A stretch of 61,908 nucleotides of DNA from Bacilli bacterium (GTDB lineage: Bacteria; Bacillota_I; Bacilli_A; RF39; UBA660). Below, in pieces: positions 20,519 to 42,350 of the stretch. Made by a program: the position numbers and the translations under genes. The DNA lies in the NCBI GenBank assembly GCA_051872635.1, contig JBJEEA010000014.1, forward strand, positions 1,944 to 63,851. The letters are read 5' to 3'. Positions within the stretch are counted from its first letter, which is position 1; each line of letters opens with the position of its first letter. The notes beneath the pieces were generated by a model. That model searched no databases. It was not told the origin of the DNA and worked only from the letters and a program-made list of their open reading frames with translations.

Positions 20519-20529
20519 GAGGTTTTAAA

Positions 20530-20658: not shown

Positions 20659-20893
20659 AAAGGAATTGGAAAAGTCTGATTATTTTTTTGATGGTGAGAT
20701 AGAACAAATAATAACTATCGTTAGAAAAGCATTAAATAAGTATATTCATGATGAAAAAATAATTAGCAGAAAAGATAAACTTTTAAAAGTGATAGAAAAA
20801 TATTTAATAAAGATAAGAGTAATTATAAAAAGAATATCTTTTAAAAAAAGATCAGTAGAGGAGGAAAACGATGAACACATTAGAAATGTATAA
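20630..20893 (+). CDS. Hypothetical protein
   Basis: ATG 20630 with RBS ggagg. Confidence 0.6.
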   Translation: MKEKLVKEIKKELEKSDYFFDGEIEQIITIVRKALNKYIHDEKIISRKDKLLKVIEKYLIKIRVIIKRISFKKRSVEEENDEHIRNV

Positions 20894-21209: not shown

Positions 21210-21219
21210 GTAATAAATT

Positions 21220-21495
21220 ATGGATTTTACAAAGTTAAATGTTGAGTTTGCTAATATGCAAAATACTATTACTAAGTATAATAATATTTTGAATGAAATA
21301 AAGAATAGAATTAAAAACAATTTAAGAGATATTAGTAAATATGAAACAAAAATAAAAAATACAAAGAATAATTTAGAAAAAGAGAGTTATAAAATACTAG
21401 TTATTTCATTAAAAAATGAAACTTCATTTTTAGAAAATATTATAAAGGAGGATGAACAAAATGAACGAGAAACAGGGGTTACTAAAACAGTATAA
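21220..21495 (+). CDS. Hypothetical coiled-coil protein
   Basis: In-operon ORF. Confidence 0.6.
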   Translation: MDFTKLNVEFANMQNTITKYNNILNEIKNRIKNNLRDISKYETKIKNTKNNLEKESYKILVISLKNETSFLENIIKEDEQNERETGVTKTV

Positions 21496-21859
21496 TGAAG
21501 AAGAAATTAAGCAATTACTTAAAGATAAAGTAAAAATGGTTTATATTGATAATGGAAGTGAAGAATTTGTAGCAAGATATGATGATTTACCAGACATTAT
21601 CGTAGATGTAAACGAAAAACTTGGACATACTGAAAATTTAAAGGTATATGATTTTGAAAATCCAATTGCATATAAACCGATTTTAACAACAATAGGTTAT
21701 TTTTTAGATAAATGTGATCCAGAGATAAGAAAAGATATAATAGATAGATTAGTTGGATTACAAAAAGGAGAAATTGAAGTAAAAGATTATAAGGTAATTG
21801 ATGAAGATATGTTAGATGATGTAAGAATTGCTATGGAAAAAGAAGAAATGGATAGATAA
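21461..21859 (+). CDS. Hypothetical protein
   Basis: RBS aaggagg; ends EEMDR. Confidence 0.7.
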   Translation: MNEKQGLLKQYNEEEIKQLLKDKVKMVYIDNGSEEFVARYDDLPDIIVDVNEKLGHTENLKVYDFENPIAYKPILTTIGYFLDKCDPEIRKDIIDRLVGLQKGEIEVKDYKVIDEDMLDDVRIAMEKEEMDR

Positions 21860-21861
21860 TT

Positions 21862-23835: not shown

Positions 23836-23850
23836 AAGAAGGTGTAAAAA

Positions 23851-26800: not shown

Positions 26801-29800
26801 AAGAATATGATGATTTCAATAAAAGATATGGTTATATTAATGATAGTGTAAATGCACGAGCATTTGATAGTGATCCAGATTATTATTTGCTTACTTCTAT
26901 TGAAAATAAAATTAGTAAGGATGAAGAAGATGATAAACCTAAATATGAAAAGGGAGATGTCTTTACTAAAAGGACAATAAGAAAAAGCAAAACTATTACA
27001 AGTGCTGAAAACGCTGAACAAGCATTAAGGTATTCTCTTAATAATCGTGGTTGTGTTGATTTTGAATATATGAAAACATTATATCCAAAAGAAGATAATG
27101 AAATTATAGAGGAGTTAGATAATTTAATATATCAAGATCCAGCAAAGATAAATGATTTTAATAATGGATGGGTAATTGCTAGTGAATATTTAAGTGGTAA
27201 TGTAAAGCAAAAACTTAATTATGCTAAATCAGTAAATGAAGATAATAAGTTTGATAAAAATATTGAGGCATTAGAAAAAGTACAACCTATACCACTTGAA
27301 TATGATGAAATTAGTGTAAAATTAGGTTCAACTTGGATTCCAGAAGATGTCTATCATGAGTTTTGTTGCGAACTTTTAGATATACCAAAATATAATAGAA
27401 GTTATTTGAAAATAAAATATGCAAAAGAAGTAAATACTTGGTTATTTCAAGCAAGTGGATTATATGGTTATGGTGTAAAAAATACTAATACTTGGGGAAC
27501 TGATAGAGCAGATGCTTTATCAATAATAAAGAATACTCTTAATCTTCAAAGTATAACTATTTATGACAAATTAGAAGATGAAAGACGAGTTGTAAATCCA
27601 ATTGAAACTGCTAATGCAAGAGAAAAACAAGAGGCAATAAAACAAGAATTTAAAGAGTGGATTTGGAAAGATGAAGATAGAAGAAATAGACTTGTTAAAC
27701 TATATAATGAAAATTTTAATTGCATGAGAGAAAGGGAATTTGATGGAAGTCATTTAACATTCGATGGAATGAATCCCAATATAGAATTACGACCTCATCA
27801 AAAAGATGCAGTAGCAAGAGTTTTGTATGGAGGTAATACATTACTTGCTCATGCTGTTGGTGCAGGAAAAACTTATGAATGTATTGCAAGTGCTATGGAA
27901 TTGAAAAGATTGGGAATTGTAAGTAAGCCAATGTTTGTTGTCCCTAATCATTTATTAGGACAATGGGCAAATGAAGTTTTAAAATTGTATCCTACTGCAA
28001 ATATTTTAGTAGCAACTCAAAAAGATTTTGAAAAAACTAGAAGAAAAAAACTAATGGCAAGAATTGCAACAGGAGAATGGGATGCAGTTTTAATTGCTCA
28101 TTCTAGTTTTGGTTTAATTCCAATGAGTAAAGAATATGAAAAGAAACATATTGAAAAAGAAATAGAAGAAGTTGTTAGTGCCATTGAAAGAATAAAAGCA
28201 GAATCAGGTGATGGTTTAAGTGTAAAGAAACTTGAACAAATAAAAACGAGTATGGATACTAAATTAAAAGTATTATTAGATGCACCGAAAGATGATGTTG
28301 TTACATTTGAAGAATTGGGAGTAGATGAACTAATAGTAGATGAGGCACATATGTTTAAAAATCTTCCAATGTTTTCAAAAATAAGAAATGTTGCAGGTAT
28401 AAATAACAGTGAATCTAAAAAAGCAACTGACTTGTTTATGAAGATAAGTTACATATTAGAAAATAATGGTGGTAAAGGTGCAGTATTTGCAACAGGTACT
28501 CCAATTTCAAACTCTATGGGAGAATTATTTGCAATGCAAAAATATCTTCAAATTGATAGATTAAGAGAAATGGGATTAGAACATTTTGATGAGTGGGCTT
28601 CAACATTTGGAGAAGTAGTTAATAGTTTTGAAATTGCACCAGACGGTAGTGGTTTTAGAACAAAAGCAAGATTTGCTCAATTTTTTAATATTCCTGAACT
28701 TATGACTTTATTTAAAGAAGTAGCTGATATTAAAACATCAAAAATGTTGGATTTACCTGTTCCTAAATTAAAAGGTGGAGATTATAAAACAATAGTTGCT
28801 CCTAAAAGTGTTGAATTAGGAGAATATGTAGATAAACTTGCTGAAAGAAGTGAAATAATTAGAAATGGTTGTGATCCACGAATTGATAATATGCTTTTAG
28901 TAACAAACGATGGAAGAAAAGCAGCACTCGATTTAAGAATGATAGATCCGAATATGCCAGACTTACCTAATTCAAAAATTAATTTAGCAGTAGAAAATAT
29001 TTATAGAATATGGTTAGAAAATAAAGAGGACAAGTTAACGCAACTTGTCTTTTGTGATTTATCAACACCAAAGAATGATGGTACTTTCAATGTATATGAT
29101 GACATTAAGAATAAGTTAATTCAAAAAGGAATACCAGAAGATGAAATAGAATTTATTCATAATGCAAAAACTAATCCTCAAAAATTAAAATTATTTGAAG
29201 ATATGAGAAATGGAAATAAAAGAATTTTAATAGGTTCAACTTCTAAAATGGGAGCCGGAATGAATGTTCAAGATAAATTAATTGCTCTCCATCATCTTGA
29301 CTGTCCATGGCGACCAAGTGATATTGAACAAAGAGAAGGAAGAATTTTAAGACAGGGAAATCAAAATGAAGAAGTAGAAATATATAGATATGTAACCGAA
29401 GGTAGTTTTGATGCCTATTCATATCAATTAATTCAAACAAAATCAACTTTTATAAATCAAATAATGGCAAACTCAAATGGTGGTGGAAGAACTGCTGAAG
29501 ATTTGGATAGAGATACACTTACTTATGCAGAAGTTAAAGCACTTGCAAGTGGTAATCCATTGATATTAGAAAAATTTAAAGTTGAAAATGAATTAAAACA
29601 ATTATATTTATCAAAAAGTAGATATGATAGATCACATATTGAACTAGAATCAAAATATAACAGAGAATTGCCAAGACAATTAAAATATCAAAAACAATAT
29701 TTAACAGGTTTAGAAGAAGATATCAAAAAAGTGGAAGATTTATCTGCTGATAATTTTAAGATAATTATAAGAGATCAATTTTTTAATTCTAGAAAAGATG

Positions 29801-30228
29801 CTAGTACAAAATTTTACCAATCGTTATCTTTATTAAAGACAGGAGAAGAAATCAAAATAGGAGAGATAAGTGGATTTGATATAATTGGTACACGAGAAGA
29901 ACTAAGGTTTACTCCTGTTGTTTATATTAAGGGTATTGGTAAATATAAGGTTGAAATAAACAACATGGATGAAATAGGTAATATTTTAAAATTAGAAAAT
30001 ATGCTCAAAAGTTTTGATAATAAAATAAATACTGTTAAAGAGCAAATCGCCTATACTGAAAAACAACTTGTAGATGTAAAGGAAGAACTAGATAAGCCAT
30101 TTGCAAGTCAAGAAAGAATACGAGAATTACAAAAAGAAAAAGCACGAATTGATAGTGAGCTTGATTTAGATAAACAAGAAAACACAAGAGAAATAGAAGA
30201 AAATAATGAAGAAGAAATAGAAAGATAA
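23851..30228 (+). CDS. Large DarB-like protein: ArdC-N-like ssDNA-binding domain + N6-adenine methyltransferase + SNF2 helicase
   Basis: YS..N......F..W....RRIK..SKGI (ArdC-N-like); [19 protein letters not shown] (MTase); [23 protein letters not shown] (SF2). Confidence 0.88.
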
Positions 30229-30247
30229 AAGTTTTTAATTTTTTTGC

Positions 30248-30291
30248 AAAAAAACTCTTGCAAAATTTGCTTTTTTAAGTGATAAATGGAA
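30248..30291 (+). promoter_or_regulatory. Conserved ICE promoter element, copy 2 (upstream of recombinase module)
   Basis: 41 of 44 bases match 3681-3724. Confidence 0.65.
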
Positions 30292-30426
30292 CGAAGAAAA
30301 AAAGTCATTAAATATATCTAATTTAAGCACTGTTAAACTTAGAGTATGGGGTTGAACAGTTATAAGTATAAAAAAATAAAACCTCTTAAAATGGCTTTAA
30401 TTCGTTATTTGAAAGGAGATGCTTTT

Positions 30427-30657
30427 TTGGAACAGAAAATTACATTAAATTATCGGCTATTAGATTGGTTATCATCAGTAATTAAAGATATTATTGAAGA
30501 TACTATAGAAGATGAACCGAACAAAATATCAACATTTATAGCAGTAAACAATATGATTAATCAATTGGATAATGATACTGCAAGTGATGATATATCTAAC
30601 TTAATCAGTGAAACATTAATTAATAAATTATTTGATGAGATTAAAAATAGTATATAA
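30427..30657 (+). CDS. Hypothetical protein
   Basis: TTG start at 30427 with RBS aaaggag, preferred over 30346. Confidence 0.55.
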   Translation: MEQKITLNYRLLDWLSSVIKDIIEDTIEDEPNKISTFIAVNNMINQLDNDTASDDISNLISETLINKLFDEIKNSI

Positions 30658-30671
30658 GGGAGGAATGAATT

Positions 30672-31178
30672 ATGTATATTACAGATACTACTGAAAATGT
30701 TAGAAAATTAATATTAGAATTAGAACAAAAAGATGATTTAAACAAATTAAAGTTTCTTATTTATATATTTGGTTTACTAAACAATGATCAAATAAATGAT
30801 AAGAATGAAGCAAATCCAAATATTATTGAAGACGATAATATAAAGATATTTTCACTCGAATTATTTGGATTGCCAATGAATGCTTGTACTATATTATTAC
30901 AATATTTTGCAATGCTTTATAATAAATTAACAAATACCAAAGATGCTTATGAAGATAATGGAAATGTTTTGGGTATTAAAGTTACTGATGAAGACATTTA
31001 TTTAGCATCACAATTTGAAAAATTGAATTTTAATGAAAAATTAGATTTATTTAGTGAAATTTTTATTAGGTATGATAATGAAACATATTTTAGTCAAAAA
31101 ATAACAATTATTACTCTTGATCCGAAATCAAATGGATTTGATTTTGCTAAAATCATAAAAGATTTTAAAAGTAAGTAG
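30672..31178 (+). CDS. Hypothetical protein
   Basis: RBS gggagg, 168 aa. Confidence 0.7.
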   Translation: MYITDTTENVRKLILELEQKDDLNKLKFLIYIFGLLNNDQINDKNEANPNIIEDDNIKIFSLELFGLPMNACTILLQYFAMLYNKLTNTKDAYEDNGNVLGIKVTDEDIYLASQFEKLNFNEKLDLFSEIFIRYDNETYFSQKITIITLDPKSNGFDFAKIIKDFKSK

Positions 31179-31191
31179 TATTTAAAAAAAT

Positions 31192-31216
31192 AATCGTAGA
31201 AATACGATTTTTTTTT
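31192..31216 (+). terminator. Rho-independent terminator
   Basis: aatcgta-gaaa-tacgatt plus T-run. Confidence 0.7.
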
Positions 31217-31282
31217 GTCTAAAAAAGTAGGTATATAAGATGAAAAAAAATTTAATATCAAGAGTAATAGGAGCAGTTAATT

Positions 31283-31459
31283 ATGAATGTTGTAGTAAAT
31301 AAGAAAATTTTAAATTTAGATGAAACATCAAAAAATAAACTAAATGCAAGGATAATTATTGCTCTATTTAAAAATATGTACAATCAAAATAAGATTACAA
31401 AAAAAGAGTATGATTCTCTAATTTCAAGTGTTAATCGCACATTTAATTTAAATAAATAA
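31283..31459 (+). CDS. Small 58-aa SHOCT-like protein upstream of the recombinase, not in ORF track
   Basis: RBS aggag; ALFKNMYNQNKITKKEYDSL matches the SHOCT pattern L..L...G.IT.EEY. Confidence 0.65.
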   Translation: MNVVVNKKILNLDETSKNKLNARIIIALFKNMYNQNKITKKEYDSLISSVNRTFNLNK

Positions 31460-31498
31460 TTATGATAAAGTTCTATTAAAGAAAGTGGGTGAAATATT

Positions 31499-33328
31499 AT
31501 GGTAAGAAATGTGGCGATATATGCAAGAGTATCTACTGAACATGAGGCACAATTATCTGCTCTTGAAAATCAAGTACAATATTATGATAATATTTTAGCC
31601 CAACATCCAGATTGGAAATTGTATAAAAGATATATAGATGAGGGAATTACAGGAACTTCTGTCAAAAAAAGAACAAACTTCTTAAAAATGTTAAAAGATG
31701 CAGAAAGTGGTCTTTTTGACTTAATAATTACTCGAGAGGTATCAAGATTTGCAAGAAATACTGTAGATACACTTCAAGAAACTAGAAAATTAAAAAAAAT
31801 AGGAGTAGAAGTTTATTTCACTGAAGATAATATATGGACTTTTAATGATGAAGATGGTGAACTAAAACTTACTATAATGGCAACACTTGCCCAGAATGAA
31901 AGTAAAAAAACTTCTCAAAGAGTTAAAGCAGGTCAACAAATTTCTTTTGAAAATGGTGTTTATTATGGAAATGGTAATATTCTTGGATATGATAAAGTAG
32001 GAAATCAAATGATTGTCAATGAAGAACAAGCTAAAATCGTTCGTTTTATTTTCTCATCCTTTCTTAATGGTAAAGGTTCTACAGAAATTAAATATGAATT
32101 AGAAAAGAAGGGATGTCTCACTTCTACAGGGTTAAAGACTTGGAGTGCATCATACATTACAAGAGTTGTAAAAAATCCATTTTATTGTGGTACTATTGTT
32201 TATAGAAAAAGTTTTATTCCAGATTTTCTTGAACAAAAGGCAAAAATAAATAGGGGAGAAGTTGAACAAGTGATTATTGAAGGAAAACACGAACCTCTAA
32301 TTTCAAAAGATGAATTTGAAAGAGTTCAAGAAATTATAAATAAAAGATCTTCTAAAATTAAAGAAAAAAGCAGAGTTGGTCAAGGAATTCCTAAAAGTAT
32401 TTGGACTAAAAAACTCGTATGTAATTGTGGTGCATCATTTAATAAAAAACTATACCATAAAAAGAAAGATGGAACTAAATCTTATTGTTATCAATGTTAC
32501 AATCAAAAGAACTTTGGCTCAAAACAAACTAGATTGAAAAAAGGTCTTGATATTTCAAATGCTTGTGATATTAAATTGGTGCAAGAAGATAAATTGAAAT
32601 TAATGGCAAAAGTTGTATTTGATACTATATGGAATGATAAAGAGCAAATTATAAGCATGGCTAATAAATTAATAGACGAAAATATTAAAGAAGAAAATAA
32701 TAATGAAGAAATTGACATTGAAATTAAAGAAATTAATAAAAAAATAGATAATATTAATAATAAGATTAATAAACTACTAGATTTATATTTAGCAGAATCA
32801 TTATCAAAAGAAATGTATATAAAAAAGAAAGAAGAATTAGATAATACTATCATTAACCTAAATAATAAATTGGAACTTATAGAATCTGAACGAACAATTC
32901 CAAAAAGTACATTAAAAGAAAAAATAGAAGATTTAAAACAATTTATTTCATATAATTTAAGTATCGATATTGATAAACCAGTAGCTGATGAATTAATAGA
33001 TGCATTTGTTGAAAAAATAATTGTGAAAAATGATTGCTTTGAATGGAAATTAAATTGTTTTGATGATATAATTGATATGGATGTAATAAAAACGCAAAAC
33101 AATTTATCAAATAAGGTTTTAGATATGCGTGTCAAAAAAACTACTCCCGAACTTGACTGTAACACAAGCGGCTATACGCGAAAAAGAGAACAATTAGTCC
33201 GTAGTTGTGAACTGTTTTTAACCCGCTTAATCATTACAAATGATGATGCTAGAAGGTATTCTGATAAAATATCGCAATGTAAAAATGTAAGGTTAAAAGA
33301 ACCAATAAAATTAGATATATATTTCTAA
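31499..33328 (+). CDS. Large serine recombinase (integrase)
   Basis: YARVST catalytic Ser, DEGITG, SRFARN, recombinase domain, Zn-ribbon CNCG...YQC...C, coiled coil. Confidence 0.95.
   Translation: MVRNVAIYARVSTEHEAQLSALENQVQYYDNILAQHPDWKLYKRYIDEGITGTSVKKRTNFLKMLKDAESGLFDLIITREVSRFARNTVDTLQETRKLKKIGVEVYFTEDNIWTFNDEDGELKLTIMATLAQNESKKTSQRVKAGQQISFENGVYYGNGNILGYDKVGNQMIVNEEQAKIVRFIFSSFLNGKGSTEIKYELEKKGCLTSTGLKTWSASYITRVVKNPFYCGTIVYRKSFIPDFLEQKAKINRGEVEQVIIEGKHEPLISKDEFERVQEIINKRSSKIKEKSRVGQGIPKSIWTKKLVCNCGASFNKKLYHKKKDGTKSYCYQCYNQKNFGSKQTRLKKGLDISNACDIKLVQEDKLKLMAKVVFDTIWNDKEQIISMANKLIDENIKEENNNEEIDIEIKEINKKIDNINNKINKLLDLYLAESLSKEMYIKKKEELDNTIINLNNKLELIESERTIPKSTLKEKIEDLKQFISYNLSIDIDKPVADELIDAFVEKIIVKNDCFEWKLNCFDDIIDMDVIKTQNNLSNKVLDMRVKKTTPELDCNTSGYTRKREQLVRSCELFLTRLIITNDDARRYSDKISQCKNVRLKEPIKLDIYF
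33145..33241 (+). repeat. att-like direct repeat copy 1 (inside recombinase 3' end)
   Basis: 97-bp imperfect repeat of 40798-40894; 33164-33241 is identical to 40817-40894 (78 bp). Confidence 0.9.
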
Positions 33329-33332
33329 ATTA

Positions 33333-33363
33333 GACTGAGATTTTAAAAATCTTGGTCTTTTTT
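33333..33363 (+). terminator. Terminator after the recombinase
   Basis: agactgagatt-ttaaa-aatcttggtct plus T-run. Confidence 0.65.
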
Positions 33364-33531
33364 GTGAAAAAATATCATTTTTTGCGATGAAAATTTATGG
33401 GTGAAAAATTGCAATCTAATAAAATATAACTCATAAAAAAGATAAAAAGGAAAATTTAATATTAAAATAGAACTAAGCCCCTGTATTTTAGCTCTTTGAC
33501 ATTTAGGTCATATACGAAAGGAGGAATAATA

Positions 33532-34002
33532 ATGAAATACGTATATTTAAAACCTGAATTAGATAATTTATCTCAAGGAGAGAGAATTGCATTTGTAAGA
33601 CAATTTAGAAGACTTACACAAGATAATGTTTCAGAAAAATTAGGATTAACTGGAGAGGCTAAAAGAAGAACCATGACAAGATATGAAAGAGGTGATAGAA
33701 CTCCAAAAAAGGATAGACTTTTAGAAATAGCGAACATTTTAAATGTTAATGTTAATTGCATTAGGGAATATGAATTCACTAAAACTGAGGATATAATATA
33801 TTTTTTACTATGGTTAGAAGAAATATATCCTAAAATGAATATTGATTTTTGCATTTCTGAATATTTCCATGATAGTAGGGATAATATGCTTATAAAATTT
33901 AAAGAAGAATGGGAATATATGAGAAATTTAAGAGAAACACGCGAAATATCATATGAAAAATATATAGAATGGAAATTAAATTATGAAGTAAAGGAAGGAT
34001 AA
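33532..34002 (+). CDS. XRE-family HTH regulator
   Basis: GERIAFVRQFRRLTQDNVSEKLG...TRYERGDRTP; ATG 33532 with RBS aaggagg. Confidence 0.85.
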   Translation: MKYVYLKPELDNLSQGERIAFVRQFRRLTQDNVSEKLGLTGEAKRRTMTRYERGDRTPKKDRLLEIANILNVNVNCIREYEFTKTEDIIYFLLWLEEIYPKMNIDFCISEYFHDSRDNMLIKFKEEWEYMRNLRETREISYEKYIEWKLNYEVKEG

Positions 34003-34006
34003 TAAA

Positions 34007-34869
34007 ATGAAACAAATTGTTAAAATAGATTTAAGAAAAATAGATTCGTTTGAAGATCATCCATTTAGAGTTGAAAACGATGATTCATTAAAAGAATTAA
34101 AAAGCAGTATTAAAGAACACGGATTATTAAATCCATTAGTAGTTAGAGAAAAAGAGCATGGTAGATACTAAATGATATCTGGTCATAGAAGGAAGTTAGT
34201 TTTAGAGTTAAATGGAATAATGAAAGCTAATTGTTATATAGAAGAATTAAATGATGATGAAGCAACAATTTATATGGTAGATTCTAATATTTATAGAAAT
34301 AAAATATTGCCATCTGAAAAAGCTTTTACCTATAAAATGAAATTAGAGGCAATCAAGCACCAAGGTAAAAAAAAGTCACTTCTGCACAATCTGTGCAGAA
34401 GTTAACCTCGGTGGAATTAATAGCTAAAGTAAGTGGAGAATCTAGAGAACAGGTTAGAAGATATATAAGACTTACTTATTTAATACCAGAGTTATTAAAG
34501 TTAGTTGATGATACTGTCTTATATGACAAAAGAAGTATTTTAACCTTAGGAATAACTACAGCCGTTGAATTATCGTATTTAAGTAAAGATGAACAAAAAT
34601 TATTACTTTTTGCAATAGAATATGATGAAATTACTCCAAGTTATGCCCAGGCATTAAAAATTAGAAAATTAAGTGAAAAGAATAAACTAAATTATGATAT
34701 TTTAGAAAAAATATTAGATGAGAAAAAAGGTAATCAAAACGATAGAATAACTTTTAACAAAGAAAAGATAGAATCGGTATTACCGAAAGAATTATTAAAA
34801 AGAGATAAGAGGTATATTGAACAATATATTATTGAGGCAATAAAAAAATATAATGATGTAAAAAAATAA
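34007..34869 (+). pseudogene. parB: ParB/Spo0J-family pseudogene
   Basis: HPF...SIKEHGLLNPLVVR...GRY*MISGHRR: in-frame TAA at 34169-34171 and a frameshift near the A-run at about 34366-34375. Confidence 0.85.
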
Positions 34870-34925
34870 AACGAGTAAATATTATTACAATAGTATTACT
34901 AACCGTTTAATAGAAGTCAGTTTTA

Positions 34926-34934
34926 TGTTATAAT
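34926..34934 (+). promoter_or_regulatory. Extended -10 promoter of the cargo operon
   Basis: TGtTATAAT 21 nt before the HAD gene start. Confidence 0.5.
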
Positions 34935-34955
34935 ATAATCAATTGGAGGCGTTCT

Positions 34956-35450
34956 ATGTATTTATTAGAAGAAATAAAAAAAATAGTAGAAAACAATTCT
35001 AAGAAAATTTCTATCTTTGTAGATATGGATGGAGTGGTAGCAGATTACAGGTTTGGAGAAGGAGAAAATATAAAGAACAATAAACCTGGACTATATTTAA
35101 ATAAGAGACCTATACATACAACAATAAATAATTTAAAAAGGATCAACGATGAAATAGATTGTGAAATGTGTGTATTAAGTTCATGTTTATTTAAAGAACA
35201 AGCAGAGGAAAAAGATTTATGGCTTACCAAATATATGCCATTTATAAAAAAAGAAAATAGAATATTTATTTTATCAGAAAATTTTGAATCAAGAAAAAAA
35301 TTAAAAATAGACAAAATAAAGGAAAAATTGGATTCAAACGAATGTGAATTAGCTATTTTAATCGATGATACACATGATATATTGTTTTTAGCTCTATCAG
35401 AACTAAAAGAAAAAGTAATTCCATTTCATGTTATAACTTTAATTGATTAA
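34956..35450 (+). CDS. HAD-superfamily phosphatase (5'(3')-deoxyribonucleotidase-like)
   Basis: IFVDMDGVVAD motif I, LSS motif II, K..WL, ILIDD motif IV. Confidence 0.8.
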   Translation: MYLLEEIKKIVENNSKKISIFVDMDGVVADYRFGEGENIKNNKPGLYLNKRPIHTTINNLKRINDEIDCEMCVLSSCLFKEQAEEKDLWLTKYMPFIKKENRIFILSENFESRKKLKIDKIKEKLDSNECELAILIDDTHDILFLALSELKEKVIPFHVITLID

Positions 35451-35463
35451 GGAGGGATTTAAG

Positions 35464-36972
35464 ATGAAATATGATGTAATAATAGATTGTTATACAGATG
35501 AACCATCAGGATTAGGCGTACCACCATATTTAAGTGTACATTCTAGGTATATAGCAGGTGCTTTAAAAAATAAAAACATTAACTATTATTATTTAACAAT
35601 TGATGATTTACGTTTTGCAAATGGAGAAAAACATTTTGATAATTCATATAATAAAAGAATAATAAACAAAACAAAAAATGCTAACAATGTTTCAAAAATA
35701 TTAAAAAATGCATCAAATATTTATGTTGTAATGGGATGTTTTGTTAAATATGAGTATGTTTCTGCAGAACCTCCTACTTTTTTAGAAGTAGAAAAGTTAT
35801 TGGATCTTTTCTGTAATAAAGAAACTAATAAATTATTATTTTATTCTCTTGGTGGCAGTGAATTAACAAGAGAAAATATAAGGAAAACAGTACCTAACAA
35901 TTTATTCAATAAAATTATTTTTGGGAATACTTATAATTATTTTATTGATGAAAATGGTAATAAGTTTAAACCAAATTATGATATGTTAAGACAAATAGCT
36001 ATTGATTCATCAAGTGTATTAGAACAAATAGAAAGACCACTAGTAATTGAGATAGAAACTGCTACAGGATGTAATAGAAATCCTGGTTGTACATTTTGTA
36101 TAGAAGGAATGAGAGGTTTGCCATTACAGTTTAGGGAAAAAGAAGATATTATAGACGAAATAAAAAGTTTATATGATGTTGGAGCGTTATACTTTAGATT
36201 AGGAAGGCAACCAAATTTTTATGCCTATAAGAATTGTAATGTAGAAGAAATAGAAAACTTATTTAAAGGAATTTGGAGTGCTTGTCCAAATATTAAAACA
36301 TTACATATAGATAATGTTAGTCCTCATAATGTAAATACTGAAGAAGGAGAAAGAATAACTGAATTAGTAGCTAAATATACTACTGCAGGAAACATTACAC
36401 CATTTGGAATTGAATCATTCGATCCAATAATAAGAGAAAAATGTAATTTAAATGGATCTTTAGATGATGTTCATAAATCAATATCTATAATTAATAAATA
36501 TGGGAAAGAAAGAGGAAAAAACGGATTACCTAAATTACTTCCAGGTATTAATATAATTTATGGATTAGACGGTCAAAATGAAAATACATTAAGATGTAAT
36601 TTAGATAATTTTAATAAAATATTAAATTCTGGAAATTGGGTAAGAAGAGTTTTTGTTAGGAAATTAACTTCTCCTTATGGTGAACAATTTGATAATTATA
36701 GTGAAGAAGATTTAAAAGAATTTAATCTTTGGAGTAAAACAATAGAAAAAGAATTTATCGTTCCAATGCTAAAAGAAGTTTTTCCAATTAGTTTAGAAAT
36801 TAGTGAATTAAGAATGGAAATGTATAAAGATGGTAATTCAATTCTAAGACAAATGGGTACATGTCCAGTAAGAGTTGTAATTTTAAACAAGGAACTAAAA
36901 TTAGATGAATTTTATAAAGTTAAGGTAGTTGGATACATTGGAAATAGAACAATTATTGGAGAAATAATATGA
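35464..36972 (+). CDS. Radical SAM protein with C-terminal TRAM-like domain (COG1031-like)
   Basis: GCNRNPGCTFC cluster motif; IIDCYTDEPSGLGVPPY N-terminus; FRLGRQ, GIESFD, PGINIIYGL. Confidence 0.8.
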   Translation: MKYDVIIDCYTDEPSGLGVPPYLSVHSRYIAGALKNKNINYYYLTIDDLRFANGEKHFDNSYNKRIINKTKNANNVSKILKNASNIYVVMGCFVKYEYVSAEPPTFLEVEKLLDLFCNKETNKLLFYSLGGSELTRENIRKTVPNNLFNKIIFGNTYNYFIDENGNKFKPNYDMLRQIAIDSSSVLEQIERPLVIEIETATGCNRNPGCTFCIEGMRGLPLQFREKEDIIDEIKSLYDVGALYFRLGRQPNFYAYKNCNVEEIENLFKGIWSACPNIKTLHIDNVSPHNVNTEEGERITELVAKYTTAGNITPFGIESFDPIIREKCNLNGSLDDVHKSISIINKYGKERGKNGLPKLLPGINIIYGLDGQNENTLRCNLDNFNKILNSGNWVRRVFVRKLTSPYGEQFDNYSEEDLKEFNLWSKTIEKEFIVPMLKEVFPISLEISELRMEMYKDGNSILRQMGTCPVRVVILNKELKLDEFYKVKVVGYIGNRTIIGEII

Positions 36973-37610
36973 AAAAAATAGGATTATTAGTTCCTAAAAC
37001 TAATTTGACTGTTGAATATGAATTACAAATGCTTTTTAGTAAAGGATATTTTGATATAGAAAAAAGTGTATTTTATATATCTAAACTAGATTATAAAACA
37101 AATTATAAGGAAGATAAAACAAAGTTTCTAGAAGATCTTGCTACAGATATAAATAACAAGAAAAAAGATTTAGAATATTTAGATGTTGATTATAATGCAT
37201 TCTTTTGTACTACTTCAGCATTAGAAAATGGAGTAAAAGAAGTAAACCCAACTATTTCGTTGATTGAGGAATCAAAAATAAGAAATGTTAAAAAATGTTT
37301 ATTAATAACACCATATAATGATAAATTAGGAAAAGAAATAGTAGAAATGTTAGAAGATAATGGAATAAAAGTTGTGAAAAATATAAATTTAGACTTATTA
37401 AATACAGCAGATTATTTTAATTATGGAATAAATAAATTAGAAAAATTAATAAAAGAAAATTATCTAAATAAATATGAAAATATTATTATATCTTGTACAA
37501 ACTTACCTACAATTGGCGTAATAGAGAGCTTAGAGGATAAGTTGAATACACAAATTATTTCAAGCAATTCAAGCTTATTTGCAAAGATTAAAAGAGACAA
37601 TAATATTTAA
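36969..37610 (+). CDS. Maleate cis-trans isomerase / Asp-Glu racemase superfamily protein
   Basis: IGLLVP..N.TVE.E, FCTTS, ITPY, ISCTNL, ISSN; both catalytic Cys present. Confidence 0.8.
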   Translation: MKKIGLLVPKTNLTVEYELQMLFSKGYFDIEKSVFYISKLDYKTNYKEDKTKFLEDLATDINNKKKDLEYLDVDYNAFFCTTSALENGVKEVNPTISLIEESKIRNVKKCLLITPYNDKLGKEIVEMLEDNGIKVVKNINLDLLNTADYFNYGINKLEKLIKENYLNKYENIIISCTNLPTIGVIESLEDKLNTQIISSNSSLFAKIKRDNNI

Positions 37611-37621
37611 AGGAGGTAACC

Positions 37622-38383
37622 ATGACTAGAGAAGAATTTAAAAAGATTATTGATATATGTAGTAATCAGGAAGAAGTCAGAAATTCAGTAAAAAAGAATC
37701 ACAACAATAATTTATGGTGGCCATTAGAAGTAGAAGATTATAGAAAAAGATTATTGATTGCTGGTCTTTCTACTAGGATTTCTTATAATATGATAGATAG
37801 TTATAGAAAAGTAATAAATGATTTAAATAGTTACACTTATGATGAAATCAAAAATATGACGGAAGATGAAATCATTAATATAATCAAAGGATTAGGATTA
37901 TCAAATGCAAGATATAAATATTTGTCATCAATGATTGACTTTATAGAAAAATATGATAATGAAATAAAAATATTATCTAATGATGAATTAATTAAACTAA
38001 TTGCTGATAATGTTAGTGGTGCATCTTACAAAGTAGCACAATGTTGTGTTTTATACATAAGAGGATATTATTCAGGTATAATGCCAGTGGATAGTGGTAT
38101 GAAGGATGTAGAATTACCTTGTTTAGGATTTGAACAATATAAAAATGCATTAGGGCACGATATTTTAAGAAAAGAATTAGAAACACTAGTAAAAGATAAT
38201 AATATGGAGGAAATAATAAAACAAAATGGATATGAAGAACTTAAAGTAGAAAATTATGATAATGCTACATGGTTTTGTCATTTAGTTCTTATTTATTATA
38301 AACGCTATTTTTGCAACAAACATAATCCTGAAAATTGTCCATTAAGAGATTGTGTTGAAGTAAAATGTAAATGTAGGAAATAA
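37622..38383 (+). CDS. HhH-GPD (endonuclease III-like) DNA glycosylase-like protein
   Basis: IKGLGL..AR, VSGASYKVAQC HhH with Lys, MPVD catalytic Asp, Cys-rich C-terminus. Confidence 0.7.
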   Translation: MTREEFKKIIDICSNQEEVRNSVKKNHNNNLWWPLEVEDYRKRLLIAGLSTRISYNMIDSYRKVINDLNSYTYDEIKNMTEDEIINIIKGLGLSNARYKYLSSMIDFIEKYDNEIKILSNDELIKLIADNVSGASYKVAQCCVLYIRGYYSGIMPVDSGMKDVELPCLGFEQYKNALGHDILRKELETLVKDNNMEEIIKQNGYEELKVENYDNATWFCHLVLIYYKRYFCNKHNPENCPLRDCVEVKCKCRK

Positions 38384-38403
38384 TAGTTAAAGGGGGAATT
38401 CTA

Positions 38404-38901
38404 ATGTTAATAATAGAAGGTATAGATGGTGTAGGAAAAACAACTTTAGTTGAATATTTACAAAGTTATGGAATGAAAAAATATCATTTTGATTATGATT
38501 CAAAAAACATGGATTTATTATCAAAATATATGAAAGTTTTATCGTCTGATGATATTGAATTAGTGCTTGACAGATCGTTTATTAGTGAAATGGTTTATGG
38601 ACCGGTTATAAGAAATAAATGTAAATTAAATCTTGAAGATTATACAAAATTATTAATTGCATATAAAAATGCAGGAGCTAAAATTATTTATTTAACAGCT
38701 CCTAAAGATGTTTTATTAAAAAGAAGAAATGATGAAAAAAGTGATTATGAAGTTATCACAAATCATTATGAAGAATTAAATAAAAAATATGATGAAATTA
38801 TGGAATATTCTTCAAAATTTATAGATGTAATTGCTATAAATACTCACGAAGCAAATATTGAACAAGTTAGAAGTCAAGTAAAGAAATTGGTGAGGAAATG
38901 A
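38404..38901 (+). CDS. Thymidylate-kinase-like dNMP kinase
   Basis: IIEGIDGVGKTT P-loop, LDRSFISEMVYG, LLKRR lid. Confidence 0.8.
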   Translation: MLIIEGIDGVGKTTLVEYLQSYGMKKYHFDYDSKNMDLLSKYMKVLSSDDIELVLDRSFISEMVYGPVIRNKCKLNLEDYTKLLIAYKNAGAKIIYLTAPKDVLLKRRNDEKSDYEVITNHYEELNKKYDEIMEYSSKFIDVIAINTHEANIEQVRSQVKKLVRK

Positions 38902-40457
38902 TTGATTTATGTTATATAGGTAATTCTTCCAATGATAAAATCATTATAAATAATGAAATTTACAATACATTAGGAGGAAGTTGTATATATTCAAGCTTTT
39001 CTTCGAGAACTTCTTTTGATGGTAAAATTGCAATAATAAGTAAAGTAGATAGAGACACAAATTTACTATTAAAAGAAAAGCAAATAGAGTTTTATGGAAC
39101 TATCGTTGATAGGATGACAGAGTTTATAATTGATGAATCAAAAACTACCTGCGAATCACAATTTTATAATACAGATATAATTAAATTAGAAACAAAAATA
39201 GATGTCAATCATTTACATATATCATTAAGAAAAGGTGTAGATGTCCAAAGTATTTTAGAAAATAAATTATTGAATTATAATCATCTTTCGATAGATGTAA
39301 TGATACATAGTGTTGTAGATTTTATACCTATAATAGAAAAATATGCTTCAAAAATAGAAATTTTATTTTGCAATATTAATGAGTACAATATAATAAAAAA
39401 ATATGTAAAAGATATACCTTTAGTAATAGTAACAAATGAAAACAAACCTATAATTGCAATAACGCTAACTAATACAATTAGTTATAATGTAATGAACAAC
39501 AATAATATTAAATCTACTACTGGTGCTGGAGATTCTTTTATTGGGGGATTCTTATCAAAATATATAATTAATCAAGATATAGATGAGTCTATTTCACAAG
39601 GAATTTATAATTCTAGCAAATCTATAGAAAATATAGGACCTTTACTATCTATAAAATCATGTATAGATAATACTACCAAATCAAAATTACTTCCTAATAA
39701 TATTATTGTTATAGGTAATTCTTGTGCTGGGAAAACAACATTTATTGATTATTTTAAAAACTACTATAATATATATTCAGATATAGATGATCTAGCGCCA
39801 TTATTAGAGACATTTATGTTAGATGATTTGTTATATCAAAATAGAATAGAAGAATTTAAAAAAATAAAAAACAAACTCAAATATATTAATAATATATGGG
39901 AAGAGTATAATGATAATATAAATTCAATATATCACTATACTAAACCCGCAAAACAGGGTGATGGGCACGATATAATAAGACCTATTCTATGGGATTATAT
40001 AATTCAAATGGCAGTTGTAAACTCAGAAACACACAATATAATTCAATTTTCAAGAGGCAGGGATCGGTTATACGAATTAGAATTTTCTGAAAATGTATAT
40101 TTTCGTAGTATAAAAAGTTTCATAAACGATTTACAAAATAGTGACAATTGTATTATTGTTAATTTAGTTTCTAGTTTAGAAACAAGAAAAAATAGAAACA
40201 GAATAAGATTTGAAAATGGTGGGCATTATGTCTCTGATGATACTATGGACAATGTATATTCAAAAGATATATTTGAATATACAAAAACGGGTGAAAATTT
40301 TGGATATTTATTAGTTGATGGAAGAACTATTCCAGTATATACTATTGCTAATGATAAAACATATAGTGAGATTGAATTAAATGAATTTTTAGAGTATAAT
40401 GTTAATAAGGTAATAGAATATTATAATGATTTTAAGGAGGAAAGAATATGGAATTAA
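38898..40457 (+). CDS. PfkB-family kinase fused to a P-loop nucleotide kinase domain
   Basis: LGGS, FCNINE, STTGAGDSFIGGF (PfkB); IVIGNSCAGKTT and ETRKNRNRIR (second kinase). Confidence 0.8.
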   Translation: MIDLCYIGNSSNDKIIINNEIYNTLGGSCIYSSFSSRTSFDGKIAIISKVDRDTNLLLKEKQIEFYGTIVDRMTEFIIDESKTTCESQFYNTDIIKLETKIDVNHLHISLRKGVDVQSILENKLLNYNHLSIDVMIHSVVDFIPIIEKYASKIEILFCNINEYNIIKKYVKDIPLVIVTNENKPIIAITLTNTISYNVMNNNNIKSTTGAGDSFIGGFLSKYIINQDIDESISQGIYNSSKSIENIGPLLSIKSCIDNTTKSKLLPNNIIVIGNSCAGKTTFIDYFKNYYNIYSDIDDLAPLLETFMLDDLLYQNRIEEFKKIKNKLKYINNIWEEYNDNINSIYHYTKPAKQGDGHDIIRPILWDYIIQMAVVNSETHNIIQFSRGRDRLYELEFSENVYFRSIKSFINDLQNSDNCIIVNLVSSLETRKNRNRIRFENGGHYVSDDTMDNVYSKDIFEYTKTGENFGYLLVDGRTIPVYTIANDKTYSEIELNEFLEYNVNKVIEYYNDFKEERIWN

Positions 40458-40747
40458 AAAAGATTCAAAAAGATATTTGGCAAAACAAATTAAACAAAGG
40501 ATTTAATACAACAGATGTAAATAAAGAATTTTGTTTATTATATGGAGAAGTATCTGAAGCATATGATGCTTGGAAAAAGAAAAAAGATGATTTGAATGAA
40601 GAATTAGCCGATATTGCTATTTACTTAATGGGATTATCTGAAATGCTAGGTTTTGATTTGGCGGACGAAATTGAAAAAAAAGTTTCTAAGAATGAAAAAC
40701 GTGTATATAAAAATATAGATGGGGTTAACGTAAGAATTAGTGATTAA
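40448..40747 (+). CDS. MazG-like nucleotide pyrophosphohydrolase
   Basis: LLYGEVSEA....EELADIAIYL...K..KN.KR. Confidence 0.85.
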   Translation: MELKKIQKDIWQNKLNKGFNTTDVNKEFCLLYGEVSEAYDAWKKKKDDLNEELADIAIYLMGLSEMLGFDLADEIEKKVSKNEKRVYKNIDGVNVRISD

Positions 40748-40797
40748 TATTTAAGTATTGTATAAAAATTCATCTAACTTAAATTTATATTATTGCA

Positions 40798-40894
40798 TCC
40801 CGAACTAAACTGTGGTACAAGCGGCTATACGCGAAAAAGAGAACAATTAGTCCGTAGTTGTGAACTGTTTTTAACCCGCTTAATCATTACAAAT
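40798..40894 (+). repeat. att-like direct repeat copy 2
   Basis: Matches 33145-33241 with 5 mismatches, all left of acaagc. Confidence 0.9.
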
Positions 40895-40957
40895 AATTGA
40901 TTTGAAAAAGTATAATATTATAAAATAATTGGAGTATACTAATAATGGATATACTAA

Positions 40958-40986
40958 TTGACATTTTCGTAAAAATGTAGTATATT
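40958..40986 (+). promoter_or_regulatory. Sigma-A promoter of the type III TA locus
   Basis: TTGACA -17 bp- TATATT. Confidence 0.7.
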
Positions 40987-41005
40987 TATATTGCACTGAA
41001 AAGTG

Positions 41006-41112
41006 TGAAAATGTTTTTCGCTTCTGGATGGTGCGAATAATAAATGATTCCAGGCGACAATGTTTTTCGCTTCCAGGTGGTGCGACTAATAAATGATCCT
41101 GGTTGAAAATGT
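41006..41112 (+). ncRNA. Type III antitoxin RNA (CptI/ToxI-like), about 2.2 repeats of 49 nt
   Basis: aatgt recurs at 41010, 41059, 41108; each unit can form an H-type pseudoknot (tcgc/gcga plus ctgga/tccag or ccagg/cctgg). Confidence 0.85.
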
Positions 41113-41117
41113 AGAAT

Positions 41118-41148
41118 AACTTCATCATATGATGGAGTTTTCTTTTGT
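41118..41148 (+). terminator. Terminator between antitoxin array and toxin
   Basis: aacttcatcat/atgatggagtt inverted repeat plus T-rich tail. Confidence 0.75.
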
Positions 41149-41180
41149 TTTGTGATATATTATATGTGGAGATGATGTAC

Positions 41181-41648
41181 ATGGAAATAAAGACAGGTTA
41201 TTTATATCATATTAAAGATGAATATTTCGATGTTGTAGATGATGATAGTTTAATGCAAAATCATGAGAAAGGTAAAAAAAGACCAACTTATTTTACTATT
41301 AAAGATAAAGATATTTTATGGTTTATACCAATAAGTTCTAAAATAGATAAATATAAGAAAATAATTGATAAGAAGATAGAACGATATGGTTTTTGTAATA
41401 CAATTATAATTAGGAAAATAGCAGATGAGGATGCTGCAATATTACTTCAAAATGCATTCCCAACATTAGAAAAATATATAGATCATGTACATACTGTAGA
41501 TGGTGTTCCATTAAATGTTCCAACCGATTTACAAAATGAAATTAAAAGTTTATTTAAAAATATGATTGGGTTAAAGAAAAGAGGAACTAATTTATTTTTT
41601 ACTGATATAGATAGTTTAAAACAAAAAATGTTAGATGAAATAAAATAA
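41181..41648 (+). CDS. Type III TA endoribonuclease toxin, CptN/ToxN family
   Basis: GYLYHIKDEYF, RP.Y, WFIPISS, LLQNAFP..EKYI; promoter-repeat-terminator-toxin layout. Confidence 0.85.
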   Translation: MEIKTGYLYHIKDEYFDVVDDDSLMQNHEKGKKRPTYFTIKDKDILWFIPISSKIDKYKKIIDKKIERYGFCNTIIIRKIADEDAAILLQNAFPTLEKYIDHVHTVDGVPLNVPTDLQNEIKSLFKNMIGLKKRGTNLFFTDIDSLKQKMLDEIK

Positions 41649-41709
41649 ATAATTAAATATGAGTCATTTTAGTGTTTATGCATATTTGGTACACATTTAA
41701 GTACCTTAT

Positions 41710-41721
41710 TGTGGTACAAGC
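41710..41721 (+). repeat. att-like core copy 3 (probable outer right boundary)
   Basis: tgtggtacaagc identical to 40811-40822; followed by chromosomal-type genes. Confidence 0.6.
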
Positions 41722-41749
41722 CAAATTAAAAGAAAATATGTAATACTTA

Positions 41750-41775
41750 AAAAGAGTACAGAAATGTACTCTTTT
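41750..41775. terminator. Bidirectional terminator
   Basis: aaaagagtaca-gaaa-tgtactctttt. Confidence 0.7.
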
Positions 41776-42013
41776 ATAGTTTATCTATTCCATCTTTTAT
41801 AATATTATTTGCTTTTTGAAGGGTATCTTTATTTATACCTTTCCATTCATCATTAAAGGTATAACTTCCATTAGTACATAGGGTTTGTCCTATTAACATA
41901 ATATAGTTTCCTACAGCACTTTGTTCAGTGGGAGTAAGATTATCAATCAATGCTAAACCTATTAGAAAAGCTGAAGTAGTTAGAGCTCTTCGATCTATTT
42001 GATTATTATTCAT
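41774..42013 (-). CDS. Small hypothetical protein
   Basis: 79 aa; AFLIGLAL..LT..EQ..VGNYIMLIGQTL pattern typical of small Firmicutes proteins. Confidence 0.6.
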   Translation of the reverse strand: MNNNQIDRRALTTSAFLIGLALIDNLTPTEQSAVGNYIMLIGQTLCTNGSYTFNDEWKGINKDTLQKANNIIKDGIDKL

Positions 42014-42176
42014 ATTACATATTATTCTAAAATATAATAAATTAGTAGAAATAATGAAAAATAATAAATTTTAAGTTGACAATTAGGTTATAAAAATGGT
42101 ATACTTAATTTGTTCGAAATTAATAGGTTGGTTATAGTAGTATAAGCTTTAATTAGCAAATTTAATTTTGTTTGTC

Positions 42177-42253
42177 GGACCCTTAGCTCAGTTGGTTAGA
42201 GCATCCGGCTCATAACCGGGCGGTCGCAGGTTCGAGTCCTGCAGGGTCCACCA
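42177..42253 (+). tRNA. tRNA with CAT anticodon, most likely tRNA-Ile2 (lysidine-modified) rather than Met
   Basis: Cloverleaf GGACCCT...AGGGTCC ACCA, loop CTCATAA; resembles Bacilli Ile2. Confidence 0.92.
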
Positions 42254-42266
42254 TTTAATTATCTAT

Positions 42267-42350
42267 GCGGGTGTGGCGAAATTGGCAGACGCACTAGACT
42301 TAGGATCTAGCGGTTTATCCATGGGGGTTCAAGTCCCTTCACCCGCACCA
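42267..42350 (+). tRNA. tRNA-Leu (TAG)
   Basis: GCGGGTG...CACCCGC ACCA, loop CTTAGGA, long variable arm. Confidence 0.95.

Follow-up and report, generated by a model that had tools for sequence, protein, structure and literature searches.

A probable composite genomic island at the 3′ end of ppdK in an uncultured Bacilli bacterium: recombinase-less units in tandem behind an integrative and conjugative element

The Locus and Its Three Junctions

Short direct repeats associated with a gene for a large serine recombinase (LSR) are found at one chromosomal locus of a Bacilli bacterium of the RF39 lineage (UBA660; assembly GCA_051872635.1), a metagenome-assembled genome (MAG). The window, meaning the whole analyzed stretch of 61,908 nucleotides (contig JBJEEA010000014.1, positions 1,944 to 63,851), has about 25% G+C. 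From left to right it comprises the right-hand 33 kb of an integrative and conjugative element (ICE; 1..33166, + strand, recognized by Pfam matches), whose integrase gene int (31499..33328, + strand; 609 amino acids as assembled) lies at its right end; a unit of 7653 bp lacking an integrase gene (element 2; 33167..40819, + strand); a unit of 899 bp (element 3; 40820..41718, + strand); and the displaced 3′ end of the gene ppdK (41717-41743, + strand). Judged from its sequence, this arrangement is very probably a composite genomic island, produced by repeated site-specific integration at a single attachment (att) site, attB, in ppdK by the LSR of the ICE. The supported order of the array would be the 5′ part of ppdK, the ICE (at least 44 kb), the 7.65-kb integrase-less element, the 0.9-kb cptIN toxin-antitoxin element, and the 3′ remnant of ppdK.

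The most conspicuous feature of the array is a direct repeat of 100 nt, present at 33145-33244 and 40798-40897 with 94% identity and a spacing of 7653; five of the six mismatches fall within the first 19 nt, and a perfect run of 78 nt begins at ACAAGC. A 17-mer from this repeat, ACAAGCGGCTATACGCG, matches the window twice when up to three mismatches are admitted, against 0.00 expected, and the 100-nt repeat occurs in these two copies only across the 1.25-Mb, 55-contig assembly. The degenerate 12-mer TGTRRYACAAGC matches exactly three times (33158, 40811, and 41710), always on the + strand, against 0.04 expected, a count reached by 0 of 100 shuffles. The direct repeat and the third 12-mer, both reported in an earlier sequence-only reading of this DNA, are therefore real, and so is the similarity to the left of sites 1 and 2 (TCCCGAACT..ACTGT) described there. 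The same reading held that site 3 shares the 12-bp core only. This is correct in the source genome (G000), where site 3 and site 2 have the 12-mer alone in common, but contigs from two other metagenome runs (X1 and X2) have a fuller left arm at site 3, near that of site 2. It also had the array follow the integrase gene; the identification as a serine integrase stood, whereas repeat copy 1 proved to sit inside the integrase open reading frame (ORF; 31499-33328) and not behind the gene.

Site 1 (33142..33241, + strand) is an attP-like junction comprising the left arm of the ICE (ACTCCCGAACTTGA...; 33142-33164, + strand), the core CAAGC (33165-33169, + strand) with the predicted crossover at CA (33165-33166), and a right arm of 72 nt, here called X, which belongs to element 2. 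Site 2 (40798..40897, + strand) is composed of the left arm of element 2 (TCCCGAACTAAACTGTGGTA), the core (40818-40822, + strand), and the second copy of X. Site 3 (41710..41743, + strand) has a residual left arm, TGTGGTA, the core (41717-41721, + strand), and the native end of ppdK; it reads tgtggtaCAAGC, followed by the ppdK codons (QAKLKENM*) and, 3′ of the site, the ppdK terminator (41750-41775).

The Chromosomal Target and the Outer Junctions

The three sites of the window appear to be att junctions of one LSR, as the sequence-only reading had proposed, and the proposal is borne out by the junctions with ppdK and by the symmetry of attP. In three relatives (G012, G013, and G008) the site is empty and ppdK is intact, reading ...gctCAAGCtaaattaaaag and ending in ...GCT GCT GCT CAA GCT AAA TTA AAA GAA ACT ATG TAA; the displaced end at 41717-41743 matches the intact ends of these genomes. 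Such an empty site had been anticipated, with a predicted junction whose right half proved correct. Site 3 is attR, since the displaced native end of ppdK forms its right side. The rest of the gene is found on a second contig of the same genome (C24) and, with the right part of ppdK at site 3, this places attL on C24 and makes sites 1 and 2 internal junctions. On C24 the order is ppdK, CAAGC, and then element DNA. The ppdK product there has 879 aa (PPDK_N and PEP-utilizers families), the match to the gene of G012 stops exactly at CAAGC, and beyond the core the foreign DNA encodes, in the ppdK frame, the replacement end QAAIKFGSQK*. Other right arms likewise give in-frame ppdK ends, QAAIREKENN* among them. 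Host ppdK joined to ICE DNA, as foreseen for the left end of the ICE, is thus present on C24, joined there to the ICE's own arm and not to the 78-bp X. All four junctions, attL and sites 1, 2, and 3, have the core in common and share the + orientation. Further along C24 lie a helix-turn-helix (HTH) gene, an intact ParB gene of 296 aa in a single ORF, an HTH_36 protein, a two-component pair, and a surface protein whose ORF runs off the contig; the contig of the array (C14) begins inside a surface-protein ORF.

The last codons of ppdK (...GCT GCT GCT CAA GC...) would accordingly constitute attB. When attP is rebuilt from the arm inside int and the arm on C24, a perfect 14-nt inverted repeat is obtained, with an 18-nt spacer and CA at its center; the symmetry extends to 19 of 33 positions, a value reached by 0 of 20000 shuffles. 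Identity between attP (about 50 bp) and attB is limited to the core CAAGC. A scan of metagenome contigs for the left arm of the ICE plus core gave 0 matches. The rebuilt site has the anatomy expected of a serine-integrase attP, and its symmetry puts the presumed crossover at the CA of CAAGC. Since the two arms of attP are inverted copies, C24 and C14 are tied to one element of at least 44 kb. It was also considered whether the 100-nt repeat is a target duplication made by an element that inserted into int; this is indistinguishable from accretion, and the idea was superseded once ppdK was recognized as attB.

A different account of the array is that it is an assembly artefact, in which the repeat of 78-100 nt chimerically joined different strains, so that the three units do not lie on one chromosome. 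The genome is indeed a MAG of 55 contigs, in other metagenomes contigs are interrupted at the borders of X (33172 and 40844), and the same Int is found with another right-hand partner in another MAG. The latter is seen in protein P0002, identical to Int at 562 of 568 positions (99%) up to the core codons ACA AGC (..CNTS) and divergent from there on, and therefore the same element exists with a different right-hand partner at the same joining point. On the other side, unique sequence lies on both sides of each junction within about 120 nt, a distance that ordinary reads can span; any other way of joining the sequences would again produce an att junction of this system; and similar arrays are present on single contigs elsewhere, in G026 and, with an attP-like right side, at locus L093. 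An artefact is for these reasons considered very improbable.

Genes of the Conjugative Element

Within the window, the ICE carries genes for an LPXTG/SpaA adhesin, a sortase, a pilin-like protein, a single-stranded DNA-binding protein, a VirB4-like ATPase, an M23 hydrolase, a Y-family polymerase, a type IV (T4) coupling protein, and an SNF2 helicase of 2125 aa. The coupling protein matches T4SS-DNA_transf (PF02534, 8.9e-54), a DUF87/TraG P-loop is found in a protein of 836 aa, and Peptidase_M23, Sortase, and SpaA are matched as well (all Pfam). The left-hand part of the element, on C24, has attL, the HTH gene, ParB, and HTH_36. A 125-aa ORF within the ICE (7942-8319) matches part of a resolvase catalytic domain (PF00239, 2e-07) and may encode a small serine recombinase, whole or in part.

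Element 2, a Widely Distributed Cargo Unit

Element 2 comprises X and a coding tail, an HTH gene (33496-34002; Pfam and NCBIfam), a ParB gene broken or split into three ORFs (34007-34171, 34172-34405, and 34393-34869), a co-oriented operon of seven genes with a putative role in nucleotide or DNA processing (34956-40747), and an end of the left-arm type; no recombinase or type IV secretion system (T4SS) gene was found in it with Pfam and NCBIfam. Its left 1.7 kb (tail, HTH, and ParB) has 71% nucleotide identity to the left end of the ICE. The operon encodes a HAD 5′-nucleotidase-like protein, a radical SAM protein of 509 aa, an Asp/Glu-racemase-like protein, a protein with a weak HhH-GPD match, a dNMP-kinase-like protein, a PfkB-containing protein of 519 aa, and a MazG-like protein. 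These are generic families, and no named system was matched in Pfam, NCBIfam, PADLOC, PHROGs, or one Atlas look-up; the operon may process nucleotides or DNA bases. Its sole PADLOC match is weak (VakA at 6.4e-07, for the kinase of the operon), so that the label defence-like, given earlier to both cassettes, is not upheld for this one; it holds for the cptIN unit (NF047359). In the Atlas, neighbors of the radical SAM protein sometimes carry HhH domains.

The ParB gene of element 2 and that of a related element in G018 (locus L087, reverse complement 2039-2886) share the position of a frame change, which divides the product into 132 aa and about 155 aa; in element 2 there is an additional in-frame stop (34169-34171). 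An old lesion or an arrangement as two genes could account for the shared change.

A scan of one genome per species for the left arm plus core yielded ten loci. In seven, the terminal part of element 2's MazG-like gene precedes the arm, which is joined at CAAGC to ppdK-type ends that all differ from one another, six of them reading as native ends and one (L093) as the arm of another element. In the other three (L096, L097, and L099) the same type of arm stands behind other sequence, which in L097 is an int gene 68% identical to that of the window. The whole-element search covered five genomes of the scan (G113-G117). The 5.9-kb operon is 95% identical in G115 and 93% in both G113 and G114; G116 and G117 have only its last 0.94 kb and 0.38 kb, respectively. 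A complete solitary element with attL and attR is present in G113 (7.0 kb), G114 (6.96 kb), and G115 (6.1 kb), and an attL of the same type in G118, while the top-ranking Int match of G113-G117 (34% identity) is located elsewhere in the genome. At the DNA level, identity to the ppdK gene of G000 is 75-86% in other genera of the family and 79-89% in three genomes of the same genus. An operon identity of 93-95%, set against 75-86% for ppdK, therefore indicates recent movement between species in an integrase-less unit bounded by att sites. The left parts vary, G115 being devoid of HTH and ParB and those of G113 and G114 being about 70% identical; units of the element 2 type are therefore mosaics.

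The left junction of G115 was at one point taken as attP-like, on account of a tblastn match starting from Int residue 545; read directly, it is ppdK followed by X, and the candidate was rejected. In G116 (contig C1, locus L106) and G121 (L110/L098) ppdK appears intact with its native end, and about 1.2 kb and about 6 kb beyond it, respectively, a left arm runs into a further copy of this native end; the right arm of the element thus equals the host end there.

Related elements are also found within the genus, whose genomes are kin and do not count as independent samples. A homologue of the left-end HTH is present in 7 of 29 genomes (G000 included), and in four of them (G018, G016, G005, and G020) the sequence upstream of it reads ppdK, CAAGC, and element arm. 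For instance, G018 has a solitary integrase-less element of 8,659 bp with attL and attR; it shares the HTH/ParB module with element 2 at 63-78% identity and carries other cargo (proteins of 657 and 966 aa and an AAA protein of 528 aa), and no Int match was obtained in this genome at E 1e-30. G005 and G020 carry elements of about 6 kb with an Int of 542-544 aa that is 56% identical. In G026 the order is that Int, an attP-like site A, a unit of 1186 bp, and a site B joined to a native-type ppdK end; the unit (L036 8105-9131, contig C13 of G026) has genes for a WYL-HTH regulator and a NADAR-domain protein and is a second two-gene unit behind a related integrase. The right arms of these elements resemble native ppdK ends of other genera, that of G005 being close to the native end at L065.

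Element 3, a cptIN Mini-Element

Element 3 contains X, a truncated tail, a cptIN module, and a degenerate left arm, and has neither a recombinase nor a T4SS gene. A promoter-like site (40958-40986; 11 of 12 positions matched) is followed by the cptI repeats (41005-41112; 2.2 copies of 49 nt, TRF), a terminator (41118-41139), and the toxin gene cptN (ORF 41145-41648, with 41181 as the likely start). CptN matches the NCBIfam equivalog CptIN (NF047359) at 7.3e-48, with 162 bits against a cut-off of 90, and the repeats and terminator stand directly upstream of the toxin gene, so that the unit is a type III toxin-antitoxin system of the cptIN family; no Rfam family matched the repeats. The element can be read as a deletion derivative of an X-type element. 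Fragments with a cptI-like repeat and terminator and without cptN are seen in G008 (L042, reverse complement about 2130-1960) and to the right of the core at L099; such fragments behind ppdK or an att core suggest decayed cptIN modules at this locus in other genomes.

The two small units give occasion to consider a true integron-like platform, in which the integrase would capture promoterless cassettes and a common promoter would express them. Cassettes in the same orientation behind one recombinase gene, and common to several genomes, would fit. However, the enzyme is a serine recombinase and not IntI, the junctions are half-sites of the LSR type and not folded attC, terminators separate the units (33332-33358 and 41118-41139), element 3 has a strong promoter-like site and element 2 an HTH regulator of its own, and cassettes are found at ppdK in genomes without such an integrase. 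A platform of this kind is exceedingly improbable, and the designation integron-like used in the sequence-only reading can be kept as an analogy, not as membership: there is no attC-type site, and the units bring their own regulator, promoter-like site, and terminators.

The Divided Integrase Gene and Its C-Terminal Tail

Int has the Resolvase (PF00239, 4.9e-28, residues 5-154) and Recombinase (PF07508, 3.6e-24, residues 175-283) domains in Pfam. Residues R10, V11, and S12 are invariant among 64 homologues, as are Cys 308, 310, 333, and 356. The best NCBIfam match is CcrB, with 151 bits against a cut-off of 900; CcrC (108 against 900) and CcrA (46 against 700) score lower. In an AlphaFold2 (AF2) model built from 64 sequences (mean pLDDT 72), long helices are predicted at 363-487, segment 522-569 has a pLDDT below 50, and the tail is modeled as strand, helix, and strand with block pLDDT of 79-87.

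The gene is divided between two elements. Int has no stop codon ahead of the crossover; residues 1-556 come from the ICE and residues 557-609 from element 2, and the protein has 609 aa in the window because element 2 supplies the tail. This tail segment (33167..33328, + strand), 53 codons in the Int frame, lacks a start codon of its own and is followed by an intrinsic terminator (33332-33358). In the +1 frame, the initial 10 codons of the segment spell the surrogate ppdK end QAAIREKENN*. The roughly 10 codons to the right of the core (33167-33196, and the arms of C24, G113-G115, and G118) are thus readable in two frames, as a replacement C-terminus of ppdK at attL and as a linker of Int in the attP or tandem configuration.

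To the right of the core, the Int frame has exactly 53 open codons in each of five sequences (element 2, the C24 arm, G113, G114, and G115), and the left arm of G118 has the same 53-codon tail; the arms of G018 and G016 do not hold the frame open. Over tail codons 16-53, the mean pairwise differences among the five sequences are 0.31, 0.15, and 0.40 at codon positions 1 to 3, a pattern which, in this alignment, reads as that of a translated frame. The tails of the ICE and element 2 taken by themselves give a weak pairwise dN/dS (ratio 0.74); the case for coding rests on the five sequences and on the protein family. A search with the whole of Int returned 121 proteins, the query included, of which 85 match regular expressions for a contiguous C-terminal motif, ..LTRIxITxDD....LKEPIxVDIYL, which aligns with the tail. 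By eye, the 36 that do not match comprise 3 with a divergent tail, about 25 that end early, and 8 with another ending. The early-ending group stops no more than 24 residues past a T-S or T-G pair aligned to the core codons ACA AGC; the ending TSCN* corresponds to the ppdK reading QAAI. An extra segment of Int, about 33 residues long in the alignment (approximately 537-570), holds the att site and is absent from the tail-bearing homologues. Integrases of the G026 type (535-544 aa) are natively without the module, which is therefore not essential across the whole family.

With attP inside int, integration would remove, in this clade, a family-conserved C-terminal module of about 40 aa, which the circle, or a neighbor to the right that bears the tail, would restore. 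The site sits between the catalytic and DNA-binding body and what the model predicts to be a beta-alpha-beta module; the module is encoded at the other end of the element and also at the left end of some integrase-less cassettes, where it is kept under coding-type constraint. At site 2 the tail frame terminates after ...ITNN, and if sites 1 and 2 recombined, Int would end in ...ITNN*. What such a division could mean for function is a matter of conjecture. One speculative and rather unlikely possibility is that Int depends on the state of the element: full-length protein would be made only from the circle or with a module-bearing unit to the right, and a lone integrated copy would yield a truncated Int ending in junk sequence. 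Directionality might be set in this way, or excision licensed, with no need for a separate directionality factor, and module-bearing cassettes that land beside an Int-bearing element would re-arm its integrase and so aid their own mobilization. In a second ICE with attP inside int (G120, Int 68% identical), ppdK is only partly assembled, and the 53-aa tail query gave no match. A literature search, which was not exhaustive, found no paper on an LSR gene split by its own attP.

Accretion and Mobility

The evidence combines into the following model. Int would recombine attP with the ppdK site at CA. Each right arm, read in the ppdK frame, would supply a short C-terminus and a stop, and because of this replacement ppdK would stay intact. 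The junction between ppdK and the right arm probably remains usable as a new attB, which is plausible in view of the likeness between right arms and the native ppdK ends found in other genera, and newcomers would then enter on the ppdK side. The likely order of arrival is the cptIN unit first, element 2 next, and the ICE last and nearest to ppdK; the cptIN unit, whose left arm shows the most decay, is for that reason taken as the oldest. The small units would be hitchers resembling cis-mobilizable elements (CIMEs), moving only through Int provided in cis or in trans. Excision between attL and site 2 or site 3 would include cassettes in the conjugative circle for transfer with the ICE, and excision of the ICE alone (attL with site 1) would leave ppdK-X-element 2, the state seen in other species. 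Tandem accretion of an ICE and small units, claimed from the start, is supported by the junctions, the empty site, and the solitary copies, and so is the claim that the sites bound units of 7.65 and 0.9 kb: these intervals measure 7653 and 899 bp, are free of an integrase gene, and were separately acquired behind the ICE.

Several findings weigh against this model. No relaxase family was matched by Pfam in the window or on C24, where several large ORFs have no assignment. The array was read from a metagenome-assembled contig across an exact repeat of 78 nt, with attL on a separate contig, and the linkage of C24 to C14 and the order across X follow from sequence logic, not from spanning reads. 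The symmetry between X and the left arm of element 2 is 8 of 33 positions, and the circle junction of this element may not be a canonical attP; the arms of G113 are moderately symmetric (16 of 33), and a circle of the G113 type would therefore be a better candidate for autonomous integration than one of the X type. At site 3 most of the left arm has decayed in this genome, and element 3 may thus be immobile. The cptIN module is not always bounded by att sites, as it occurs with 91% identity in G013 and G003, between an intact ppdK and the 79-aa gene that follows it, without a surrounding att site. Finally, no att-to-att joint was present among the listed joints (with sides of 20-44 letters) of four public runs, whose assembled contigs contain 0.28-0.40 of the words.

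Some of these points would fit a fossil array, a record of past integrations in which the internal sites are dead and the small units are fixed remnants. The decayed left arm of site 3, the in-frame stop in the ParB gene of element 2, the asymmetry of X relative to the left arm, and the lack of excision joints in the assembled contigs of the public runs speak for it. Against it, the cargo of element 2 is 93-95% identical across species in which ppdK DNA is only 76-85% identical, and the unit has clean attL and attR there, which argues for recent transfer, and Int and its catalytic residues are intact. A fossil state is possible, if on balance unlikely; repeated integration by an Int that may still be active at the present day is the preferred explanation.

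Comparison with Known Systems

Three known systems come nearest to the present one: SCC (staphylococcal cassette chromosome) composite islands, accretion of the ICESt type with CIMEs, and the ssrA islands of Dehalococcoides. The SCC islands are integrated by the Ccr large serine recombinases, and recombinase-less pseudo-SCC units occur among them. The present island is similar in several aspects. In both, an LSR inserts elements into the 3′ terminus of a housekeeping gene that is present in one copy and survives the insertion, and tandem units, some of them recombinase-less, are separated by short direct repeats (described in part in PMC3146451); moreover, CcrB is the best NCBIfam match of Int. 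The target is rlmH (orfX) there and ppdK here, CcrA and CcrB act there and one recombinase here, Int falls far below the Ccr cut-offs, and a conjugative driver and an attP inside the recombinase gene are particular to the present case.

Tandem accretion with cis-mobilizable, integrase-less CIMEs is established for ICESt1 and ICESt3 of Streptococcus thermophilus (PMC5704250). There, integration is followed by decay to an integrase-less unit flanked by att sites, and a newcomer arrives at the att site beside the target gene (PMC5704250); here too, att-bounded units lie in direct orientation next to the target, and elements 2 and 3 are without recombinase and T4SS genes. In contrast, ICESt elements use tyrosine integrases and longer identity segments, whereas this island has an LSR with a common core of 5 nt, and at least one integrase-less unit here is widely spread and well conserved and not a local remnant. 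In Dehalococcoides, islands at ssrA depend on DsiB, a CcrB-like serine recombinase, and have been compared with SCC; they are tandem LSR islands downstream of one essential single-copy gene, 15 of them are without an integration module and proposed to be cis-mobilizable, and the conserved module includes a gene with a ParB domain (PMC3146451). They differ in the ssrA target with its 20-bp repeat, in an integration module at attL on the reverse strand, and in having no conjugation genes (PMC3146451).

The 3′ end of ppdK is known as attB of the PvCTn conjugative transposons of Bacteroidota, which cover the same Ala-Gln-Ala-Ala codons and regenerate the ppdK stop on integration (PMC11005914). These belong to another phylum and another integrase family, the word serine being absent from the text of the paper, and the available part describes no tandem cassette array (PMC11005914). 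The coincidence suggests that the end of ppdK is a convergent landing site, for elements of uncultured Bacilli MAGs on the one hand and for Bacteroidota conjugative transposons on the other (PMC11005914). A search of the literature for LSR elements targeting ppdK, again not exhaustive, found none, only the work on Bacteroidota. An attP within the integrase coding sequence is known from intP of phage Mx8, where the integrase gene acquires a different 3′ end upon integration (PMC6070905). Mx8, a myxophage, encodes a tyrosine recombinase (PMC6070905); in the present case the enzyme is the LSR of an ICE, and the part removed here is a family-conserved module that is also kept on integrase-less cassettes.

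The locus offers a mapped example of how small-genome gut Bacilli would gather cargo at one site by means of a serine integrase, with the target, four junctions, the empty site, and solitary cassettes all identified. It also indicates that an integrase-less unit can be a widely traveling, well-conserved element and not merely local debris. In the design seen here, an LSR gene is split by its own attP and trades its conserved tail with the recombination partner. If the tail alters activity, it would be a new coupling of recombinase function to integration state, of relevance to LSR-based tools for genome engineering.

The Chromosomal Flank

To the right of the array, a conserved chromosomal flank (41774..42350) comprises a 79-aa gene (41774-42013, − strand), a tRNA-Met (42177-42253), and a tRNA-Leu (42267-42350), beyond which are found a ZIP transporter gene and gerA-type genes. 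Overlapping the tRNA-Leu, another ORF of 79 aa (42307-42546, − strand) has a weak match to a tyrosine integrase C-terminus, at an E of 0.008 and below the cut-off; it may be the relic of an older island that targeted the tRNA, or a chance resemblance.

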